DNA of 64,000 nt from Candidatus Latescibacterota bacterium. GTDB taxonomy: Bacteria > Latescibacterota > UBA2968 > UBA8231. The notes under the pieces are model-generated. The model had not been told where the DNA came from and did not search any database. It saw only the letters and a list, made by a program, of their open reading frames with translations. Location of the stretch: NCBI GenBank assembly GCA_965217585.1, contig OZ244561.1, forward strand, positions 6,560,001 through 6,624,000, given 5' to 3'. Positions 50,316-60,686 of the stretch are shown in pieces. The position numbers and the translations under genes are program-made. The first letter of the stretch is position 1, and each line of letters begins with the position of its first letter.

Positions 50316-51425
50316 ATGCCCACCCTGTATCAACGCCTAGGCCTGCGCCCTTTCATCAACGCCCGTGGCACCATCACCACGCTCGGCGGCTCCATCATGC
50401 CCGCGCCCGTGGTCGAGGCGATGGCCGAAGCGGCTCGCCAATTCATCCATCTCAACGAGCTGCACGAAAAGGCCGGTGCTCGCATCGCCGCGCTCACCGG
50501 TGCTGAAGCGGCCTTTGTGTCTTCGGGCGCGGCCGGCGGTATGCTCTTGGCCGGTGCAGCTTGCCTGACCGGAACCGACGCTCGCGCCATTGCCCAGCTT
50601 CCCGATGTCGGGGATCGGCCCAACCAGTTCGTCATCAGCTTGGTCGATTCGCATTACTACGTCCATCAGGGCTTTCGCCTCAGCGGCGGCGAGCTGGTCC
50701 GAGTCGGGACCACAGCGGCCGTGACGCTCGACGATTACGTCGCTGGCATCGGTCCCAAGACCGCAGCCGTAGTGTATTTCCTCGGCAGCCAGCCTCTGTC
50801 CGAGCTGCCCGCACTCGTCGCCGCGGCCCACGAGCACAATGTGCCGGTCATCGTCGATGCGGCCGCGCAATTGCCGCCGCGCTCCAACCTGACCGACCTG
50901 CCGGCCATGGGCTGCGACCTGTCGGTTTTCAGCGGCGGCAAGGGCCTGTTTGGGCCGCAGTCATCGGGCCTGATCTTGGGCCGCAAAGACCTGATTGCGG
51001 CGTGCCACCTCAACTCCAACCCGCACTCGGCTATCGGCCGCGGCATGAAGGTCGGCAAAGAGGAAATCTGCGGCCTGCTCCGCGCCGTCGAGCTATTCTT
51101 TGAAATGGATGAAGCAGCGCAAGTGGCCGAGTGGCAGCGCCGCTGTCGAGTCGTCGCCGAGGCTGTCGAGGGCATCGCTGGCATTAAGGCTAGTTTTACC
51201 AGCGCCTATGAGAACAAATTTCCGCCGGCCGAGCCGCTGGTGCATCTGCACTTTGGCGACGAGGCCCCCCTCTCGGCCGGCGACGTAGTGCACGCGCTCG
51301 AAGCAGGCGAGCCGTCGATCTTGGTCAGCGGCGGCGACACCGCGCTCAGCGTTGGGCCGCAAACCCTCTTAGACGGCGAAGCCGAAATCATCGCCGACCG
51401 CCTCCACCGCATCTTAACCGCCTAA
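50316..51425 (+). CDS. SelA-like PLP-dependent enzyme (DgaE-type)
   Basis: INARGTITTLGGS, VDAAA, FSGGK, GPQSSG, GRGMKVGKEE. Confidence 0.82.
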   Translation: MPTLYQRLGLRPFINARGTITTLGGSIMPAPVVEAMAEAARQFIHLNELHEKAGARIAALTGAEAAFVSSGAAGGMLLAGAACLTGTDARAIAQLPDVGDRPNQFVISLVDSHYYVHQGFRLSGGELVRVGTTAAVTLDDYVAGIGPKTAAVVYFLGSQPLSELPALVAAAHEHNVPVIVDAAAQLPPRSNLTDLPAMGCDLSVFSGGKGLFGPQSSGLILGRKDLIAACHLNSNPHSAIGRGMKVGKEEICGLLRAVELFFEMDEAAQVAEWQRRCRVVAEAVEGIAGIKASFTSAYENKFPPAEPLVHLHFGDEAPLSAGDVVHALEAGEPSILVSGGDTALSVGPQTLLDGEAEIIADRLHRILTA

Positions 51426-51450
51426 CTATCTCAACGAGGAGTCAACCGCC

Positions 51451-51756
51451 ATGACCGAAGACAAAACCACCCTCAGCGCCGCCGAAGTAGATGCCGAATT
51501 GCAAACCCTCACAGGTTGGCGTCGCGACGGCATCATCATCTCGCGCGACTTCGTCTTTGCCAACTTCAAGGACATCACCTCGTTCCTCAACCACCTGACC
51601 CGCACCATCACCGAACAGAACCACCACCCCGACTTCTCCTTGGATACCGGCAAACGCACCATTGCCGTCTCGGTAACAACTCACAGCGAAGGGGCCGTCA
51701 CCCGCTCGGATATCCTCTTCGCCCGCACGCTCAACGAGTGGCAGCCGGGGAGCTGA
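51451..51756 (+). CDS. Pterin-4a-carbinolamine dehydratase
   Basis: EQNHHPD, THSEGAVTRSD. Confidence 0.88.
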   Translation: MTEDKTTLSAAEVDAELQTLTGWRRDGIIISRDFVFANFKDITSFLNHLTRTITEQNHHPDFSLDTGKRTIAVSVTTHSEGAVTRSDILFARTLNEWQPGS

Positions 51757-51807
51757 GTCTCAGAAGCGTTCTTAAAACTCGCGTCGGGTGTCAGGTGTCG
51801 GCGCATG

Positions 51808-51844
51808 AAAAAGCGCCCGATGCCAAGGAGACACCGGGCGCTTT
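51808..51844 (-). terminator. Intrinsic terminator of the surface-protein gene
   Basis: AAAGCGCCCG/CGGGCGCTTT stem with a T run on the minus strand. Confidence 0.65.
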
Positions 51845-51864
51845 GCAGGGGTCGATGACAGAGC

Positions 51865-54800
51865 CTACTTGAGGTAGAGCAGGCGCTGAGTCTGCATCCC
51901 GCCCGGATAGTGCAGCCGCACCAAATACATCCCCGCCGACACCAACGCGCCGCGCCGGTCGCGCGCATCCCAGCGAACCTTATAGAAGCCAGCGTCCTGG
52001 TATTGATCGACCAGCGTGCGCACGGGCTGCCCGAGGAGGTTGTAGATCTCCAGGCGCACGGGGCCGTCCACGTCCAGGCGGTAGGGGATGAGGGTGCTGG
52101 CGTTGAAGGGGTTGGGCGCGTTGGGCGCGAGGCCCGGCGGCCCGTCCGCGACCGCCGGCTTGGACGCCGGGGCCGCCGGCGTGTCGATGTGGAACCAGCG
52201 GGAGCGCTCGCTCGTTCCGGCCCCGTTGATGGCCTTGATGCGGTAGGTGTACGTGGTGCTGGCCGCCACGGTGTTGTCGGTGTAGGTGGTAGCGGCCGTC
52301 CCCGTGTCCGCCACCAGCACATCGAAGTCGCCCCCGGTGTCGTTCACGCGCACGCGCCGCAGGATCACGTAGCCGGTGATGGAGTCGTCGCCGGGATCGT
52401 CCCAGGTGAGGGTCACCGAGCCGTGGGTCGCCGTGGCGGAGAGCCCCGTGGGCTGGTCCGGTGCGGAGGCTGGCGGACCGGCCACCGTCGCCGAGATCGT
52501 CTCCGACAGCGCTTGGCCGTCCTTCGTGCAGACCGCCGCCGGGGTGCCGCAGGCCGCCCCGGCCGCGAGCGTCACCGTCACGTCCGCCGGCGAATCCGGC
52601 TCGACCGTCAACTGCCACAGGTCCCTGCGCCGGTTCACCCGGCCGGCCGCCGTCGCCCGGCCCCCGGCTACCGCCACGACGTCCTCCCGCAACCGCCGGC
52701 CGTTCATCAAGCTGAGCGGCTCGCTGAACGCGATCCGGAACGTGAACGCGCGCTCCCCGTCGTGCGCCTCCGGCATGTCCACGAAGCTCGCCGTCAACGG
52801 CGGCGGCTCGTCTGGCGGACCCGCCCGGCGCAGCGACACCGCGACCCGGATCCCATCCGACGCCCCGCCCTCGTAGCGCGAGTATTCGGTACTTGGTTGT
52901 GGCGTGTGGCCCATCAGCATCGGCGGCGACTTGCCACTGTTACTTGTATACGCTTCCAGCCCCGAAATCCGGTATCCGTTCCAGTACGCCACCAAGCCCG
53001 ACGCGTCAGGTCGCGTCGAACCCGTCGCCAGCCCAAACACTCCCCTCGAATTCACGAGGAACGCATCGATTACGTAAGTCGCGCCGCCGTCCTCGAACGA
53101 GGTGACGTCCATCTCTCCGAACGACTCGCCCCGAACCCGGCCGTACCCCGCGACCCATAAGGGGAACTGATGCCAACCCAGTGTCATCGTCGTCGACAAT
53201 AGCTCCTCCTCGCCGTCTTCGAGCGGCGGATTGGCGGGTGCCGACCACACCGGCGCCGTCGCCGCGTTCGTTATCGAGCCATCGCCGCTCTCGACCCGCA
53301 CCGAGAGCCGTGCGCCCACGTCCGCCACCGTCACGACATAGGTGCTCGCCGTCGCGCCCGCGATCACTTCCGATCCGCGCAGCCACTGATACGCCAAAGC
53401 GCCACTCGCCGCTCGCCGCTTGCCGCTTGCCGCTTGCTGCTCGTCGAACGACACCCTCAAGGTGTTTCCAACCTGCGGTACCCCGTCGATCCGCAGCATC
53501 GACACAACCGGCGATTCCCCGTCGGAAATCGTACCGGTCGCCTCGGCGTCGGCAAGTGTCGCGCCCGAGGCGTTGCTCAACCGGAGCGTGAACGTTTCCC
53601 CGCTGTCGTCCTCTGCATCATTCAGAACGGCGATGCGGACCGTCTTGCCCGTCTCCCCGGGCCCGAAGGTGAGCGTCCCGCTGGCCGCGGTGTAGTCCTC
53701 GCCCGCAGTCGCAGTGCCGTCGACGGTTGTCCAATCGACCGTCACGGTCTCGCAATCGTTCCTGGCGTCGAGCGTCACCACGAAATCAACCTTTGCGTCG
53801 GTTCCCTCAGTGGCGCTCGCGTCCCCGACCGACACCTTGCGGTTTCGCGCGATGTGCAAGGGCTCGGACGCGGTGTTGGGATTTCCCACCTCGTCCGTAG
53901 TGATGCCGGCTGGAAACGTGATAGTCGTCTCCCCACCCGCTGGCTCCGGCTCCACACTGAATGTATAGATCCAGCCGAACGCGAGCCGACTGCTGATAAC
54001 CAACCACAACCGCGGAAGGCGGATGTTGTTAAACTCGATATCGTTCCTACCGAATCCCCCCAGGACCGGTTCGCTGATTTCGATATTCACCTCCGTCCTG
54101 CTGTCTGAATCCGGCGTCCCGTCCCCGCACATCACCGACACGGATGGCGGGGTGGTATCAGTGACCAACGTGAACGACGCGGTGTGCGTCGTCCCCGGCG
54201 TGCCGCCCAAATCCGCCTCTGGATAGGGCGTAGCTCTGAGCTGATAGCTCCCTGCTGGCAGGGAGCGGCCAATTATGTCCTCGAACAGCGTGTAGGGCGC
54301 AGTGTTGTCGGTGCGTGATATGTTTTGGGGACCCGTGAGCTCCAATCGCACGCTGCCGATTCCCGCCGCCGCGGACGAGTAGGTGCGAAAGTTCACTTTC
54401 TCCCCGGCGGTCACGCCCACACCCGCCAGGGACCCGCCCACGCCCATGAGCCCGTAAGAATGTGCACGCCTCGCTTGCAGCTCATCGGAGAGTCCCTCGA
54501 GACCGTCCCTGATGTTGGGATCAACCAACATGATCGCCATGTCGGTGATCGGGTCCCATGCAACCGACGACGATCCATCGTCGTCAATGATCGTGCCGGT
54601 GGTCTCGGCGTCGGCAAGTGTCGCGCCCGAGGCATTGCTCAGTCGTAGCGTGAAGGTTTCGCCCCCGTCTCCTACCGTGTCGTCCAGAGTGACGACGCTG
54701 ACCGCCTTAGTCGTCTCCTCGGTTCCGCCGTCATCGATGAAGGTGGTCCGCACCTTGATGGTCTTGCCTTGGTCGGCGGAGACCAGTGTGTAGCTAGCCT

Positions 54801-55185
54801 GCGTCGCATCCGCGATTTCCGTGTCTGTGGTCCCGTCGGATCTTATCCACTGGTAAGTGAACGTCGCCTCGCCTAGGCCGTCCTCGTCCGCAATCTCCGA
54901 CACCGAAGCCGTCAGCGTCTCCCCGACCCGTGCCATCCCGGCAATCGAGGGCACTCCGGTCGCTTGAGCGTCGACAGCCGGAGCAAGCAGTAGCAAAATG
55001 GTGATAACCCCAAGTTTAAGATGGGAAGTCGCCACTACGCCCTTGCACGGAAACCGCATTTCCATGAGTTGCTCTCTTGCAACATAGCGTCTTGCTCCGT
55101 GGGCTGGGCTAACTTGTCGGAGATGGAAACGAGGCACAGTCATGGCCTCGGCGATAGCTGAAGCGATATGAGCTAAGTTCTTCAC
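51865..55185 (-). CDS. Mosaic secreted protein with Ig-like, Calx-beta, fibronectin III and FlgD-like domains
   Basis: VDWTTVDGTATAGEDYTAASGTLTF (Calx-beta); APDQPTGL..VTLTW..YTYRIKAIN (FN3); NAPNPFN..SAGMYLVRL tail; AAAGGAG RBS before GTG. Confidence 0.82.
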   Translation of the reverse strand: MKNLAHIASAIAEAMTVPRFHLRQVSPAHGARRYVAREQLMEMRFPCKGVVATSHLKLGVITILLLLAPAVDAQATGVPSIAGMARVGETLTASVSEIADEDGLGEATFTYQWIRSDGTTDTEIADATQASYTLVSADQGKTIKVRTTFIDDGGTEETTKAVSVVTLDDTVGDGGETFTLRLSNASGATLADAETTGTIIDDDGSSSVAWDPITDMAIMLVDPNIRDGLEGLSDELQARRAHSYGLMGVGGSLAGVGVTAGEKVNFRTYSSAAAGIGSVRLELTGPQNISRTDNTAPYTLFEDIIGRSLPAGSYQLRATPYPEADLGGTPGTTHTASFTLVTDTTPPSVSVMCGDGTPDSDSRTEVNIEISEPVLGGFGRNDIEFNNIRLPRLWLVISSRLAFGWIYTFSVEPEPAGGETTITFPAGITTDEVGNPNTASEPLHIARNRKVSVGDASATEGTDAKVDFVVTLDARNDCETVTVDWTTVDGTATAGEDYTAASGTLTFGPGETGKTVRIAVLNDAEDDSGETFTLRLSNASGATLADAEATGTISDGESPVVSMLRIDGVPQVGNTLRVSFDEQQAASGKRRAASGALAYQWLRGSEVIAGATASTYVVTVADVGARLSVRVESGDGSITNAATAPVWSAPANPPLEDGEEELLSTTMTLGWHQFPLWVAGYGRVRGESFGEMDVTSFEDGGATYVIDAFLVNSRGVFGLATGSTRPDASGLVAYWNGYRISGLEAYTSNSGKSPPMLMGHTPQPSTEYSRYEGGASDGIRVAVSLRRAGPPDEPPPLTASFVDMPEAHDGERAFTFRIAFSEPLSLMNGRRLREDVVAVAGGRATAAGRVNRRRDLWQLTVEPDSPADVTVTLAAGAACGTPAAVCTKDGQALSETISATVAGPPASAPDQPTGLSATATHGSVTLTWDDPGDDSITGYVILRRVRVNDTGGDFDVLVADTGTAATTYTDNTVAASTTYTYRIKAINGAGTSERSRWFHIDTPAAPASKPAVADGPPGLAPNAPNPFNASTLIPYRLDVDGPVRLEIYNLLGQPVRTLVDQYQDAGFYKVRWDARDRRGALVSAGMYLVRLHYPGGMQTQRLLYLK

Positions 55186-55500
55186 GATAAATCTCCTTTT
55201 AAAGAGGTTTGTGGGGTGATTCCCCTTTCACAGAGGGTGGTTGACGAGCGCCGGTGCCCGGTTCAATCCCGGCCGAGGTCGTGTTTCTTCAACAGAGACG
55301 ACCTCCAACGCATCGTTTCGTATCGGTCGTGAAAATAGCGTGCTAAGGGGATAGCGAACGTTTGCTAATAAAGGACAAACGTTTATAGCAGGTCGCAGAA
55401 CAAGGGCGACCTTCGGCCCCTCGGTCCTTGGCAAAGAACCGAGCAGGCGCGGCCAAACAGACGTTGGCCGCAGTATGGAGCTAGTGGATCTTAGAGAATC

Positions 55501-55514
55501 GGGGGGGGGGGGGG
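55501..55514. repeat. G14 homopolymer
   Basis: 14 consecutive G in the intergenic region upstream of the surface-protein gene. Confidence 0.9.
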
Positions 55515-55942
55515 TAAATTATTGTTTTTAAACGACTTATGAAATTATACTTGTCGTCCAAAGCTCGGGACTGGACGCTACCTGGGGCCACCGCACCAAG
55601 CGCTGTCCTATCAAATGTCGGGTTATGGACCATTTTCTATTTTGACATCAGCCAATATGAAGATGAATACGTGTGAGGCTGCTATAATACAACATAAATC
55701 GAGGTTTGTGTCAAGCACGCAGCACAATCGGTCGTGCTCAGGCGGAGTGTATCAGCGCATCGCCCCACCGATTGCATCCCTCTAGGCAATGCCGCGCTAT
55801 ACGACGCTTCTAACCACTAAGCCAGCACGGAAATTTTAACTGATGTTACGCGGTCGGCTTATCCCCTAAAGGTCTCATTTATGGGTTGTGCCCGATACAG
55901 TCTCACTCTGCACAGCCCCGTCCGTCCCGCTGCACTTGGCCT

Positions 55943-55958
55943 TGGCATGGATATTGCA
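55943..55958 (+). promoter_or_regulatory. Sigma-54-like promoter upstream of the Rpn gene
   Basis: TGGCATGGATATTGCA with correct GG-N10-GC spacing. Confidence 0.5.
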
Positions 55959-56013
55959 ATTAGGAATCATAAATAGACCCAACCGCCCCCAGTTCGGACG
56001 GCTTGGCAAGCTC

Positions 56014-56048
56014 TAATTCCTAATTCTCAATTCTCAATTCCTAATTCC
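56014..56048 (+). repeat. Five tandem heptamers YAATTCY
   Basis: TAATTCC TAATTCT CAATTCT CAATTCC TAATTCC. Confidence 0.85.
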
Positions 56049-56060
56049 CGATGGATCGCC

Positions 56061-56936
56061 ATGGCCGAATTCGACACGATTTCTAAGCACCTCATCCACA
56101 CCTACCCCCACGACTTCGCCCGCTTCGCTCTCCAGCAAGACGACCTTGAGGTGCTCGACGTCATCGACACCGAACAACCCACCGTCGAAGCCCACCGCAC
56201 CGACAGCCTCATCCGCGTGCGTATCAACGACGAGGAGGCGTTGGTTCATCACGAATTTCAAACCACCGACAGCAAACCACCCATGCCGCACCGCATGGCT
56301 GGCTATATCGGGCGCGGTATCGAACAACACGGCCTGCCGATCTATTCCAACGTCATCTATTTGCGTCCCGACGCCGGCCGCACCGATCCGGGACACTACC
56401 TCCAAGAGCGGCACGGCTTCCGTGTCCTGGTGCAATACCAAGTGATTCGGCTGAGTGAACTAGACGGCCAACGCATGCTCGACGCGGGGCACTCGGGCTT
56501 GCTCCCCTTTGCGCCGTTGATGCAGCGGCCAGTGGGGGTGGATGCGGCGGCGTGGTTGCGCCAGTGTGTGAACCGGGCGCAGCAGGTGCCGATGGACGAG
56601 ACCCTCAAGGCGAATTACTTGGCCGATCTTGCCATTCTAAGCGGTTTGGTGTATAGATTAGAAACGATTATGACCATCATATCGGAGGCGACCATGTACG
56701 AATCGTCGGTAGTGCAGTATTTCACGGAAAAGGGCATCGAGCGGGGAGGCCGCGAACGCGCCGTTGAAGATCTGCTCGACGTGCTAGAGATTCGCTTTGG
56801 GCTGGCCGCGTCGGATCCGTTGGCCGACCGTATTGGGGCCATTGACGATGTGCAGCGTCTCAAGCAGTTGCATCGGGCGGCCATACAGGTGCCGAGCCTC
56901 GAAGCCTTTAGCAACCTGTTAGATACCGCCGAGTAG
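56061..56936 (+). CDS. Rpn/YhgA-like PD-(D/E)xK protein
   Basis: FDTISKHL, RTDSL, HHEFQT, RMAGY, VIYL, LLPFAPL, MYESSVVQ, EKGIERG, LEIRFG. Confidence 0.75.
   Translation: MAEFDTISKHLIHTYPHDFARFALQQDDLEVLDVIDTEQPTVEAHRTDSLIRVRINDEEALVHHEFQTTDSKPPMPHRMAGYIGRGIEQHGLPIYSNVIYLRPDAGRTDPGHYLQERHGFRVLVQYQVIRLSELDGQRMLDAGHSGLLPFAPLMQRPVGVDAAAWLRQCVNRAQQVPMDETLKANYLADLAILSGLVYRLETIMTIISEATMYESSVVQYFTEKGIERGGRERAVEDLLDVLEIRFGLAASDPLADRIGAIDDVQRLKQLHRAAIQVPSLEAFSNLLDTAE
56694..56936 (+). CDS. Putative in-frame small protein (RpnS-like), 80 aa
   Basis: GGAGG at 56684-88, 5 nt before in-frame ATG 56694, at the start of the C-terminal domain. Confidence 0.5.
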   Translation: MYESSVVQYFTEKGIERGGRERAVEDLLDVLEIRFGLAASDPLADRIGAIDDVQRLKQLHRAAIQVPSLEAFSNLLDTAE

Positions 56937-56974
56937 GGGCACGGCGTAACGTCAGATTTTAAGAACGCTTCTCA

Positions 56975-57906
56975 GAGGCTGTCTGAAAACCCTTGCTGTA
57001 GCCCGTATTTGAATCGGCGTACTCATCGGGCCATATTCAGGTTTCGCTACAAAATCTGAACAGAAAGGCTCGTATGATGAGTACGCCTAGTGGCCAATAT
57101 GCCACCGATGTAACCGATGCGCAATGGCGGCGGATCGAACCGTTGCTGCCGGCTTCGACTTGGCAACCGAACGGTCCGGGTCGGCCGCCGCGGGATCAAC
57201 GCCAGATGGTCAACGGCCTTTTGTATTTGACCAAGACCGGGTGTCCTTGGGCGCTGCTGCCTTCTTGCTTTGGGCCGTGGAAAACGGTGTATGATTACTT
57301 TCGTCGCTGGAGTCTACAAGGGGTCTGGCCACAGGTATTGGATCGACTCACCCAGCGAGAACGCCGCCTTAACGGACGGGCCCCTCAGCCGTCGGCTGGT
57401 TGTGTCGATAGTCAGACGATCAAGACGGCAACCCACGGTAAAACAACCGGTTATGACGCCGGCAAAAAGATCCAAGGACGTAAACGTCATCTGTTGGTCG
57501 ACACCTCGGGCTTGCTTAGAGAGGTGGTGGTCACCGCCGCCGATGTAGACGATCGCGACGGCTTGAAGCAGGTGTTGACCCGCTATAGTACTCCCGACGT
57601 ACCCCGGTTACGCAAACTGTGGGTCGATGGCGGCTATCGAGGCGATCCGATCCGAACGTGGGTGGCCAACCTAAAAAAGACGCACAAAATAGACTTGGAA
57701 GTCGTCGCCAAACAAGGCGGCGGATTTACCGTAGTCAAACGTCGTTGGGTCGTCGAGCGCACGTTTGCGTGGTTGATGAATTTTCGCCGCCATGCCCGAG
57801 ATTATGAGGTGTTGACCCGCCATAGCGAGGCCTTGATTCAGATTGCCATGATCCACTTGCTACTCAAACGGATCAAATAGAAAAAATGGAGTTTTCAGAC
57901 AGCCTC
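56975..57906 (+). mobile_element. IS5-family (IS1031-like) insertion sequence, 932 bp
   Basis: 16-bp TIRs GAGGCTGTCTGAAAAC / GTTTTCAGACAGCCTC; TCA duplication at 56972-74 and 57907-09. Confidence 0.93.
57074..57880 (+). CDS. IS5-family transposase
   Basis: TDAQW, GCPWALLP, VDSQT, GYDAGKKIQGRKRH, VDGGY, RWVVERTFAWL. Confidence 0.95.
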   Translation: MMSTPSGQYATDVTDAQWRRIEPLLPASTWQPNGPGRPPRDQRQMVNGLLYLTKTGCPWALLPSCFGPWKTVYDYFRRWSLQGVWPQVLDRLTQRERRLNGRAPQPSAGCVDSQTIKTATHGKTTGYDAGKKIQGRKRHLLVDTSGLLREVVVTAADVDDRDGLKQVLTRYSTPDVPRLRKLWVDGGYRGDPIRTWVANLKKTHKIDLEVVAKQGGGFTVVKRRWVVERTFAWLMNFRRHARDYEVLTRHSEALIQIAMIHLLLKRIK

Positions 57907-57957
57907 TCAGAAGAATATCTTGTGCAGCAGGCGCAGGTTGCGGCCTGGCTCGGGCAG
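57907..57957 (-). repeat. Displaced copy of the TonB receptor 3' end
   Basis: 51-bp exact match to 58467-58517, encoding LPEPGRNLRLLHKIFF*. Confidence 0.95.
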
Positions 57958-58069
57958 ATACCCCAAGGCCGCTCGACCGCTCTTCCTCAATTATATCCCT
58001 GTGGCGTTTGGTCAATTGCTCGTTTTCATCGGCCAGCCAAATCCACAGGTGAGTATCCAGAATAATCAC
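57958..58069 (-). pseudogene. Truncated VapC PIN toxin
   Basis: MIILDTHLWIW...GLGVS is cut at the repeat junction. Confidence 0.8.
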
Positions 58070-58284
58070 TTCAGCAGTTCCCAGTCCTCTTTAGCTACTG
58101 GCTCCGTCGGATCCAGATATTCTATGACCTTACCTCGCAGCGGTGACGGCGTCCCGGGATGGTGGACGGTTTCCTGCGACAATATAATTACCTCTACCTC
58201 ATCCCCTTCTTGAAAAGGAAGGGCATTCAGTTTCAGTTCACCGTTTGCGGCGATCTTTTTTTCTACGCGATAGGCTTTCATCAC
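58066..58284 (-). CDS. Putative antitoxin of the truncated VapC
   Basis: 72 aa, LPFQEGDEVEVII...LRGKVIEYLDPTEPV..DW; GTGA overlap with the PIN gene; GAGG RBS. Confidence 0.7.
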   Translation of the reverse strand: MMKAYRVEKKIAANGELKLNALPFQEGDEVEVIILSQETVHHPGTPSPLRGKVIEYLDPTEPVAKEDWELLK

Positions 58285-58466
58285 TCACCTCTCTAAAGAT
58301 TGGCTACGACTAATCTAGCCGAAGATAGAGTACATAATCTGGATCGCAATTTCAATTACCGATCAGCGACCGTCCCTCCTTCACTACCGAGGTCACGGGC
58401 CAGATCTGTTTGGTGTGCTACACCCTGTGCAATCCCATCGTCCAGTGGGTGAATCCAGACGAATTC

Positions 58467-60686
58467 TCAGAAGAATATCTTGTGCAGCAGGCGCAGGTTG
58501 CGGCCTGGCTCGGGCAGGATCTCTTTGACGCGGTTGAGGTGGTTGCGGTACACCGCGCCAGTGGCGTTTTCCAAGGTCAGAGAGAAGGTATGCAGCCGTC
58601 CCCCCCACTCCGCATAGTACTGACTCGAAAAATCCAGCACCGCGTAGCCCTCCGTAGGCTTTTCAAACTCGCCGATCTGGTTCTGCTCCGCCGCTAGGCG
58701 CAGATATACCGTCGCACTCAGCGCCTCGGTGGGTTCGCAGGTCAGGCCTAGGTGCCCTTGCAGGGGCGGCAGACGCGACAGGGGTTCGTCGTTGAGGTCG
58801 ATGAGACGGCCGCGCACATAGCTGAGGGTGCCAGCCACCTTCCAAGGCTCCGCTAGATGCCAATCGAAGTTGGCTTCGGCACCGTGCATGAGGACGCGCT
58901 CCCCCACGGTCCGGTAGAGGAAAAGATCGGCGCGCCGCAAGCTGCGCTCGCCGCTGTTCTTGGGGAAAATGTACCCGTCAATGGCGTTGCGAAAGACGGC
59001 CAAGTGCAGATGGCCTTCTTCGAGGTGGTAGTCGGCGAACAGTTCCAGTCCCAAGCCGCGTTCGCTGCCGAGGGCACCATTGCCCACCTCGTACGAATAA
59101 GCGGCCAAATGCGGCCCTTCTGAAAACAACTCTTCGATGCCGGGCGCGCGAAAGGTGCGCATCAAGGTCGTGCCCAGCGTCAGACCCGAGCTGGCGCGGT
59201 AGTGGTTGGACAGGCCGGCAGACATACCGGCAAAGTCGCGCGTCTGGATGCGGCCGACCCGCCGCGAGTCGCGTTCCTCGTGCGGCTCGATGCGGCGGGC
59301 GTCAACGCGCAAGGCCGCGTTGACCGCCCAAGGATCCTTCTCCCACTCTTGGTACGTGAACAAAGCGCCGGCGTATTCCTCGGCCGGCGGCGTGAAGTTA
59401 AGCCCGGCCGCGGCATAATTGCGGTACTCGTACCACAGGCCAATCGCGCCGTTTGCAAAAGGCCCCATGCGATCCAAGTGGGCCAGAGCGCCGCTGTTGT
59501 GCGTGAGCACGCCGAACTCCATCCCCAAGTCGCCACTAGCTTCGAATTCGCCGTGCTGATAGCGCGAAAACGAGTGATGCAACTCTAGGCGCTGAAGCCA
59601 GTCTGGCCCGGTGACAACTTCGCCGCGCCCTTCGAGGTGCTGGCGCTGAAGATCAATGGATACACCGTCCGGGTGGCCGCCCTCCGGGTCGGGAGGAATG
59701 CCGTAGTCGGAATCGTACAAACTGCCAGACGCGCCCACATGCCCCCAGGGACGCACCAGACTCAGGCCGACCGAAGCATTGCCCGTGCGGATGTCCGTAT
59801 TGGCGAGTTTCCCGTGCGGCGTGGCGATATCGTCGGCATTGCGCAGACTGCTGTCGAAGCGCAAGGCCAGTGGGCCGAGCCCCTGTTCGAGGGTTAGGCC
59901 GCCGGACAAACCTCGGTTGACGCTCTCCCCCTGATAGGTCACCGAGCCTCCCAAGCCATCGGGCCGCTCGGAGGGCACGTACCCCCGCACCACGTTGACG
60001 ACCCCGGCCAAGGCATTGGAGCCGTAGAGCAAGGTGCGGGGGCCGCGCACGACCTCGATGCGCTCGGTGGTCATCGGCTCAATGGCCACCGCGTGGTCCG
60101 AGGAGGTACCGGACAAATCGCCAGTGCGCTCGCCATCTTCGACCACCAGCAAGCGGTCGCCGCCCAGCCCGCGCAGCACCGGACGCGCGGGAGCTGGCCC
60201 CATCGAGCGCTGGGCAATGCCCGGCTCGTAGTCGATGGTCTCGGCGATGGTGCGGCTCAAATTCTGCCGCAGCTTGCTGCCGCTGAAGACAACTTCGGGT
60301 GTTTGGAGTGGAGAAACAGGGCTCGTGCGTTCGCCTTCGACGAGAATCTCCTCTACGTGCAGGGCCCCGTGGCCGATAACCAGATCGACATGGGTGGTAT
60401 CTCCGGTGACGACCTCGACTTCAAAGCGCGCTTCGTGGTAGCCGACGTGTAGGCTTTGCAGGACGTACGCGCCGGGGGGTACGTTGGCGAAGAAGAAGTA
60501 CCCCTCGGCGTCGCTCATCCGCGCCCGTTCGAGCCCCTCAATGACGACAGTAGTCCAACCGACGGGTTGGCCGCTTTCGGCGTCAATCACGTGGCCGGCT
60601 AGCGAGCCAGTCTGGTTATCGTTACCGGAGGCGGGTCCTACCGCCAAGCTGACGAGGACAAGGGATAAGAAAACGTAGAAGCGCAA
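58467..60686 (-). CDS. TonB-dependent receptor, ZnuD-like metal uptake
   Basis: N-terminal beta-sandwich; plug motifs RPVLRGLGGDR, DHAV, ERIEVVRGP..LLYGSNALAGVVNV; GPHLA; terminal F. Confidence 0.88.
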   Translation of the reverse strand: MRFYVFLSLVLVSLAVGPASGNDNQTGSLAGHVIDAESGQPVGWTTVVIEGLERARMSDAEGYFFFANVPPGAYVLQSLHVGYHEARFEVEVVTGDTTHVDLVIGHGALHVEEILVEGERTSPVSPLQTPEVVFSGSKLRQNLSRTIAETIDYEPGIAQRSMGPAPARPVLRGLGGDRLLVVEDGERTGDLSGTSSDHAVAIEPMTTERIEVVRGPRTLLYGSNALAGVVNVVRGYVPSERPDGLGGSVTYQGESVNRGLSGGLTLEQGLGPLALRFDSSLRNADDIATPHGKLANTDIRTGNASVGLSLVRPWGHVGASGSLYDSDYGIPPDPEGGHPDGVSIDLQRQHLEGRGEVVTGPDWLQRLELHHSFSRYQHGEFEASGDLGMEFGVLTHNSGALAHLDRMGPFANGAIGLWYEYRNYAAAGLNFTPPAEEYAGALFTYQEWEKDPWAVNAALRVDARRIEPHEERDSRRVGRIQTRDFAGMSAGLSNHYRASSGLTLGTTLMRTFRAPGIEELFSEGPHLAAYSYEVGNGALGSERGLGLELFADYHLEEGHLHLAVFRNAIDGYIFPKNSGERSLRRADLFLYRTVGERVLMHGAEANFDWHLAEPWKVAGTLSYVRGRLIDLNDEPLSRLPPLQGHLGLTCEPTEALSATVYLRLAAEQNQIGEFEKPTEGYAVLDFSSQYYAEWGGRLHTFSLTLENATGAVYRNHLNRVKEILPEPGRNLRLLHKIFF

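Follow-up and report, generated by a model that had tools for sequence, protein, structure and literature searches.

Transposase-less cassettes held between the ends of an insertion sequence (IS) are already known as mobile insertion cassettes. In the accessible text of De Palmenaer et al. (2008, PMC2266710), MIC231 of Bacillus cereus consists of passenger genes between IS231 ends. We describe a 5.2-kb block in a 64,000-nt stretch of a Candidatus Latescibacterota bacterium (contig OZ244561.1; the whole stretch is called the window) that resembles MIC231-type cassettes, as far as that text describes them, in having IS-type terminal inverted repeats (TIRs) around its passengers, no transposase, a target duplication and presumed mobilisation in trans. 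It differs from MIC231 in its IS5-type ends, which derive from a 76-bp miniature inverted-repeat transposable element (MITE) and go with a TNA duplication of 3 bp, and in its cargo, a 3.3-kb surface-protein gene of the type IX secretion system (T9SS). The block is also known as a single copy, and no cognate autonomous IS was found in 31 genomes of the same genus. MITEs of the IS5 family are the second point of comparison: the block shares with them a 15-bp TIR starting with GAAGC, the TNA duplication and many short copies in the genus, but it is 5.2 kb long rather than 76-146 bp, since it carries genes. The relevant IS5-family groups that duplicate TNA are the IS1031- and IS427-like ones. What is unusual compared with the known cassettes is the MITE origin, the T9SS adhesin-like cargo and the host. 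The locus thus shows, with an empty site as validation, a clean case of a MITE that has taken on a large surface-protein gene, here in an uncultured lineage associated with sponges, and a MITE-based cassette of this kind offers one concrete route for shuffling adhesin-like genes between sites.

Inside the block lies a second element, a cassette with an Rpn-like gene. According to the available text of Zhong et al. (2023, PMC10400941), rpn genes spread in an IS-like manner without defined ends or target duplications, and hitchhiking has been proposed for them. The Rpn subfamily described here has defined ends and 7-8-bp duplications, the ends being those of an IS with a DDE transposase in the same genome, so the hitchhiking idea becomes directly testable. 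We regard this cassette family as the more useful result; rpn-type genes can hitchhike on IS ends. No description of an Rpn cassette family with defined ends was found in the literature searched, which did not extend to the supplements of PMC5350276, PMC10400941 and PMC2266710.

Measured from TIR to TIR, the block is a discrete insertion of 5,209 bp with exact borders and a TNA duplication of 3 bp. The window contains two copies of the 15-mer GAAGCGTTCTTAAAA and no more, as an inverted pair: one at 51763-51777 (plus strand) and one at 56957-56971 (minus strand). Shuffled windows gave a mean of 0.06 matches, and two or more in 0 of 100 shuffles. Between the repeats we observed a 1106-aa minus-strand open reading frame (ORF; 51865-55185), an 875-bp spacer and a 291-aa plus-strand ORF (56061-56936). 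When the IS5 transposase and an IS701-type transposase were used as tblastn queries, no match was obtained within 51763-56971, and the spacer held no stop-to-stop frame longer than 96 aa. These results agree with the original prediction, made from the letters of the window, of perfect 15-bp TIRs with TCA outside each (51760-51762 and 56972-56974), enclosing two genes and no DDE transposase. The features of the block and of the inserts that adjoin it are as follows.

51760-51762, no strand: left copy of the TCA target duplication; the single TCA found here in relatives is the stop codon of a minus-strand TonB-dependent receptor gene.
51763-51798, plus strand: left arm, composed of the 15-bp TIR (51763-51777) and 21 bp shared with the MITE; corresponds to the first 33-36 bp of the ~76-bp MITE of the genus.
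51810-51844, minus strand: intrinsic-terminator-like hairpin of the surface-protein gene, a 15-bp stem and then a U run; minimum free energy -37.8 kcal/mol, z = -2.5.
51865-55185, minus strand: 1106-aa surface-protein gene with AIR9-like Ig, Big_12, Calx-beta and fn3 domains, a T9SS C-terminal sorting domain and a signal-peptide-like stretch after M41.
55186-55740, minus strand: leader/promoter region, conserved at six paralogous loci, holding a G14 tract (55501-55514); no Rfam match.
55741-55839, no strand: inner part of the right arm, unique in the window genome; the 7 bp at its end (ATTTTAA, 55833-55839) form the left duplication of the nested cassette.
55840-56955, plus strand: nested 1,116-bp cassette with the Rpn-like gene only; IS4/IS701-type TIRs at 55840-55851 (CTGATGTTACGC) and 56944-56955 (GCGTAACGTCAG).
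56061-56936, plus strand: candidate 291-aa Rpn-like PD-(D/E)XK nuclease.
56956-56962, no strand: right copy of ATTTTAA, overlapping the first 6 nt of the right IS5-type TIR.
56957-56971, minus strand: right 15-bp IS5-type TIR.
56972-56974, no strand: right copy of the TCA duplication, which doubles as the left duplication of the adjoining IS5.
56975-57906, plus strand: 932-bp IS5-family IS, transposase at 57074-57880 (NF033580, 240 bits), TIR GAGGCTGTCTGAAAA, TCA on both sides (again at 57907-57909).
57907-58517, no strand: third of the inserts absent from the empty site; the receptor 3′ end is duplicated here over 51 bp (57907-57957 = 58467-58517), with a truncated PIN gene and a 72-aa ORF between the two copies.

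The genome that holds the window is called G000, and other genomes of the same genus are likewise identified by G-numbers. The left flank of the block carries SelA-like and pterin dehydratase genes and shares 90-95% identity with same-genus genomes; the locus was read in nine relatives, eight of which were informative (one anchor matched elsewhere). In five of these eight, the dehydratase stop is joined to the receptor stop via a single TCA. The empty site of G003 is GAGCTGAGTCTCAGAAGAATATC, letter for letter the 23-mer that had been predicted; those of G012 and G013 are one letter off, and those of G010 and G014 slightly more (one to two changes overall in the four). At the same locus, G001 and G005 carry unrelated fillers of 70-80 bp and G002 carries a different gene. 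Relative to the empty site, the window genome contains three successive inserts: the 5,209-bp block with its TCA, the IS5 with its TCA, and a 560-bp piece. Metagenomes were compared as assembled contigs, in which depth and tract-length heterogeneity are unusable. In four of four runs, contigs joined 51757 to 58465 (sides of 38-53 nt; likeness threshold 90), which is the empty allele; these contigs probably derive from co-occurring relatives. Contigs for intermediate alleles were absent among the joints listed. A search of Rfam with 51000-58700 gave no match at E ≤ 1.

The 15-mer is a genuine transposon end. The window genome contains six exact and five one-mismatch copies of it, compared with none of the reversed control, and it is present in 18 of the 31 genus genomes, where 11 short inverted pairs, 72-147 bp apart, are MITEs. 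The flanks of these ends are almost always TNA, and TCA and TAA dominate among the four possible forms. Two bona fide kinds of IS5-family IS reside in the window genome, one with GAGGCTGTCTGAAAA ends and one of ~870 bp with GAAGCTGTTGAGTTA ends; both make TNA duplications, and the IS5-family TIRs of this genome start with GAGGC or GAAGC. The TIR of the block is perfect (15/15), is identical at 11 of 15 positions to that of the adjoining three-copy IS5 (NF033580), and resembles the GAAGCTGTTGAGTTA end in its first 5 nt. Both the count of 11 and the shared type of 3-bp target had been part of the original prediction.

Six relatives (G002, G007, G013, G014, G033 and G034) carry a ~76-bp MITE at the same orthologous site. 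Its first 36 bp are the left arm of the block, and its last ~25 bp (…CACGGCGAAATTTTAAGAC(G)GCTTC) resemble the right arm. Because the MITE ends match both arms, the block corresponds to a ~76-bp MITE with ~4 kb of cargo in the middle. The junction between left arm and terminator recurs at positions 203923 and 6193434 of the window genome and in the G001 ortholog of 203923. The outer flank is TCA in the window and TAA at 203923 and 6193434; the identical junction at three loci with different flanks implies that it predates the insertion in the window.

Two further arrangements of these arms were observed. In G005, a left-arm-type and a right-arm-type end lie 2.85 Mb apart in the same orientation, neither with a partner within 17 kb. 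At G000:C1:203923-204142, a ~190-bp MITE from a different family (ends CCAATACGGTTTAGTTAAGC…, target TTAAAA) interrupts the left arm; in the G001 ortholog the arm is continuous.

The Rpn-like gene is not original cargo of the 5.2-kb block; it lies in its own nested cassette. Among nine Rpn-like paralogs in the window genome, homology ends ~20 bp past the stop codon, at …GCGTAACGTCAG, and in complete copies it begins ~180-220 bp upstream, at an inverted CTGA[CT]GTTACGC. The same 12-14-bp ends bound three ISs of 1,105-1,112 bp, about ten MITEs of ~200 bp and the Rpn cassettes. The 12-bp TIRs of the nested cassette are identical to the ends of the 1,105-bp IS at G000 5393889, 5472940 and 5588665, and the IS with ends of this type encodes a 352-aa DDE transposase (NF049921, NCBIfam transpos_IS701_2, 353 bits, cut-off 250). 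Exact copies of the CTGA[CT]GTTACGC-type 12-mer number 23 in the window genome, compared with about one expected by chance from simple arithmetic. Removal in silico of the cassette and one repeat gave …GCCAGCACGGAAATTTTAAGAACGCTTC, and G005 carries an uninterrupted right arm, GCCAGCACGGGAATTTTAAGAACGCTTC, with one mismatch to this reconstruction. The uninterrupted arm and the ATTTTAA on both sides place the insertion of the cassette at the inner edge of the right IS5-type TIR. The outer 15-bp TIR is still perfect because the duplication regenerates TTTTAA, and the stop codon lies 20 nt from that TIR because the gene's own cassette ends there.

The search of the genus for further copies gave at least 162 matches at E ≤ 1e-100 in 26 of the 31 genomes, with up to 13 candidates scored per genome. 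When 30 copies were fetched and a TIR pair was defined by at most two mismatches, 12 had such a pair. Five of these 12 were flanked by perfect 7-8-bp repeats (TAACTAA, TTAGTAA, TTATTCA, TTACTTCA and TTATCTAA), and two more had repeats with two mismatches. One copy of the IS4/IS701-type IS has the duplication TACATTAA, and one MITE has TTCCTAA. For the Rpn copy at G000 2068k, no empty site was readable, the flanks being rearranged in relatives.

The IS that shares its ends with ~200-bp MITEs and Rpn cassettes is like members of the IS4/IS701 type in its transposase (353 bits on transpos_IS701_2). In the accessible part of PMC2266710, IS701 elements are 1,400-1,550 bp long with a duplication of exactly 4 bp, and the ISPepr1 subgroup of IS4 has 7-8-bp duplications, CT ends and AT-rich targets. 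The IS of the window genome differs from IS701 in its length of 1,105 bp, its 7-8-bp AT-rich duplications, its 5′-CT ends and its Y-2-R-3-E-6-K motif. Judged against that text, it fits the ISPepr1 subgroup more closely than classical IS701, and the family assignment is ambiguous.

Separately, at G036:C1:5558888 (locus L197), an IS4/IS701-type end, CTGACGTTACGC, stands one base after the IS5-type 15-mer, like positions 56944-56971 of the window; a partner end was not found within 3 kb. This second case suggests that such insertions favour the inner edge of the IS5-type TIR (…TTCTTAAAA) as a target.

The history that we consider likely is that the block is a MITE-derived mobile insertion cassette of IS5 type, transposed as a unit into TCA by an IS5-family transposase supplied in trans, that the Rpn cassette was moved by the IS4/IS701-type transposase, and that the IS5 arrived separately. 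Observed directly are the element boundaries, the two duplications, an empty site for each element and TIRs in common with genuine ISs and MITEs; we infer the mobilisation in trans, the transposase responsible and the order of events, which would be as follows. A non-autonomous cassette on two arms of the ~76-bp MITE, with the T9SS surface-protein gene, its leader and its terminator aboard, would have inserted as a unit at the TCA between the pterin dehydratase and TonB-dependent receptor genes, the TCA presumably being duplicated by an IS5-family transposase acting in trans. Before or after this step, the right TIR would have received the 1,116-bp Rpn element at its inner edge, with duplication of ATTTTAA, and the autonomous IS5 would then have inserted at the right-hand TCA. 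The original prediction of a non-autonomous IS5-type cassette is borne out by the TIR-to-TIR insertion, the TNA duplication and the empty site, but its inclusion of the Rpn gene in the cargo is not.

Several observations weigh against this history. An autonomous IS with the exact 15-bp ends was not found, and no pair of these ends at IS length occurs in the 31 genus genomes; the ends of the best candidate transposase agree at only 11 of 15 positions. Twenty 15-mer ends were sampled, and no transposase was reached from any of them: 11 belonged to MITEs of 118-146 bp, and the frames beside seven others encode XdhC, an LRR/YWTD protein, TdeIII, HsdR, sulfotransferase and creatininase, with no transposase among them. 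Other long cargo was likewise not found: none of 22 solo ends had a partner TIR and a matching TNA flank within 20 kb. The proposed search for further TIR pairs yielded TNA-flanked MITEs in 18 of 31 genomes and neither other cargos nor an autonomous IS with these ends. The loci at 203923 and 6193434 share the left arm and have no right TIR, and the repeat at 6193434 sits within a 5.6-kb variable island with borders elsewhere. The subterminal sequence of the right arm is now 1.1 kb away, displaced by the nested cassette, which makes present-day mobility of the block doubtful. Finally, no second copy of the loaded element was found in the genus genomes or the metagenome contigs.

This lack of a second loaded copy also fits a history in which a bare MITE came first to the TCA and took up the ~4-kb surface-protein segment later, while in place, through recombination or gene conversion with an arm-bearing paralog, so that the block never transposed here. 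A bare ~76-bp MITE with the same arms does exist in six relatives, six paralogous loci share leaders and terminators able to support recombination, and long direct repeats and hot spots mark the region as recombinationally active. We nevertheless judge such filling unlikely: no relative has a bare MITE at the site, five of the eight informative relatives having nothing there, the arm homology is only ~36 and ~25 bp, and a donor with both arms around the gene, itself a loaded cassette, would still be required. The two repeats might instead be independent solo ends, with the whole 6.7-kb difference being one island formed by another mechanism and the matching TCA a coincidence. With four TNA forms and TCA and TAA dominant, flanks would match by chance in about 1 of 3-4 cases, and the right part of the insert, with its 51-bp duplication, does point to a mechanism without transposase. 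We hold this to be very improbable, because on the left the empty-site sequence breaks off precisely at TIR and TCA, and on the right the TIR leads into TCA and the IS5 with its own TCA duplication, so that the empty site is rebuilt without an extra base. The arms, moreover, match both ends of a single MITE family and are correctly inverted relative to each other.

The original prediction had also raised mobilisation by the Rpn-like nuclease itself, which would move the 5.2-kb block or its own gene as a PD-(D/E)XK transposase. Rpn-like genes do lie beside five of six loci of the surface-protein family and at the constant border of a variable hot spot, and one Rpn-like insert has an unusual 106-bp flanking duplication. 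The proposal is disfavoured in that the gene sits in its own cassette with IS4/IS701-type TIRs and a 7-bp duplication: the TIRs are those of an IS with a DDE transposase in the same genome, duplications of 7-8 bp are typical of DDE transposition, and the outer block has a 3-bp TNA duplication like IS5 elements. Zhong et al. (2023, PMC10400941) found no evidence of transposition by Rpn proteins, and we find this role scarcely credible.

Some solo ends of the 15-mer type in G042 and G036 (L059, L060, L063, L066 and L069) stand directly beside genes for an LRR/YWTD protein, a TdeIII restriction endonuclease, type I HsdR, a sulfotransferase and a creatininase. A search of 20 kb gave no matching second end for them; they may be decayed cargo elements.

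The 291-aa protein is here called Rpn-like and is not a family member by profile. It had no match in Pfam or NCBIfam, even at E = 10, PF04754 (Rpn/YhgA-like) included, and its 1,710 homologs (1,600 representatives) are all unnamed or 'hypothetical'. Among 32 aligned relatives, PF04754 was matched in one (E = 0.008), PDDEXK_2 in one (E = 0.003) and DUF4351 in two; the language-model neighbours were named Rpn family (score 0.97). The AlphaFold2 model had a pLDDT of 91.5, and the top matches of a structure search of the PDB were PD-(D/E)XK proteins (XisH, EndoMS/NucS, Cap4 and restriction enzymes) at a probability of 0.96-0.98, with weak E values (≥ 0.017) over ~100 residues. A sequence search of the PDB with the family profile gave chance-level matches only. 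Alignment of the profile with Escherichia coli RpnA by hhalign paired D48, E65, Q67 and R78 with D63, E82, Q84 and R94 (E = 0.0086; probability only 4.6%), and across the family these four columns show no variation or conservation of at least 90%. An N-terminal D5-x3-K9, matched by eye, resembles D11-x3-K15 of RpnA. In the part of Kingston 2017 (PMC5350276) available, D11, D63, E82, Q84 and R94 of RpnA are essential. Compared with the Rpn/YhgA-like and RpnL-RpnS toxin-antitoxin genes described in the accessible text of PMC5350276 and PMC10400941, the protein is alike in its length (~290 aa), its many paralogs per genome, the correspondence of D5, D48, E65, Q67 and R78 to the five RpnA residues, and a C-terminal helical domain that is DUF4351-like in some relatives; it differs in lacking a PF04754 or NCBIfam match. 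The predicted Rpn-like label has weaker evidence behind it than a family match of its own.

An Rpn-like gene or fragment was found within a few hundred bp of one end at five of six loci with the conserved leader. The orientations and junctions of these neighbours vary, and an extra copy (2068k) lies 3.5 kb from another gene with a T9SS domain. Target preference, co-duplication or selection could each account for the association, and we do not choose among them. A divergent-subfamily Rpn-like gene at G000:C1:1562740-1563981 (L037, 1541-2782) lies in a 1,030-bp insert with no clear IS-type TIRs; on both sides of the insert stand 106-bp direct copies, 94% identical, of sequence from the target gene's 5′ end. 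Many relatives, including G001, G003, G007, G010, G012, G036 and G040, have an empty site that keeps a single 106-bp copy, and the insert is present in G002, G004, G011, G014, G033, G037 and G038. A 45-bp repeat (91%) flanks a 14-kb island at G000 203871-218057. The variable hot spot at G000:C1:6188948-6194577 (L053, 2449-8078) holds 5.6 kb with convergent surface-protein and Rpn-like genes; it is empty in G011 and G040 and has 2.9-8.2 kb of other contents in G001, G003, G010, G012 and G035. One border of this hot spot is always the upstream end of the Rpn-like unit. More speculatively, rpn-type genes might be a standard passenger of the IS4/IS701-type cassettes of this lineage, which would favour the inner edges of IS5-type MITEs and the borders of phase-variable T9SS loci, with the nuclease promoting or stabilising the turnover of adhesin islands, including the insertions with 45-106-bp duplications; we consider this broader role quite unlikely.

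The cargo gene was confirmed as a Calx-beta/fn3/FlgD surface-protein gene, as predicted: the 1106-aa protein matched the profiles of Calx-beta, fn3 and FlgD_ig and, in addition, the T9SS sorting domain TIGR04183 (32.7 bits, cut-off 23). Six loci of this family in the window genome (that in the window and those at G000 216.5k, 1296k, 2370.5k, 6189.3k and 7182.8k) share a ~400-bp leader (81-87% identical) and a terminator segment, the latter being conserved 3′ of the paralogous genes. A scan for consensus promoters and terminators gave no excess over shuffles. No close counterpart of the gene body was found by DNA search in 30 genus relatives, in which only paralogs of the C-terminal sorting domain and the leader occurred. 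As for a second copy or donor, the metagenome contigs held no relative and the genome contigs only partial or modular ones. The best segments of its modules are up to 84% identical to proteins of many Dehalococcoidia metagenome-assembled genomes, and loci titled Candidatus Latescibacterota match the C-terminal third of the protein at 90-92% identity. This suggests cross-phylum sharing of adhesin-like modules within one habitat. The runs that hold the window stretch include sponge metagenome libraries.

The G14 homopolymer of the conserved leader reads C14 in gene orientation, and tract lengths across the six paralogous leaders were 10, 11, 14, 15, 15 and 17 units. In run X8, one contig differs by 1 nt and 3 nt at 55500/55503. 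The tract is a candidate switch for slipped-strand phase variation.

To the right of the block, the 932-bp IS5 is one of three identical copies in the genome, with the duplications TTA/TTA, TTA/TTA and TCA/TCA, and represents a later or independent insertion at the same TCA. Beyond it, a 509-bp piece that is single-copy in the genome lies between two perfect 51-bp direct copies of the TonB-dependent receptor gene's 3′ end. The 72-aa ORF of this piece had no family match, and its other gene is the truncated start of a PIN (VapC-like) gene (PF01850, E = 0.009, below the cut-off).

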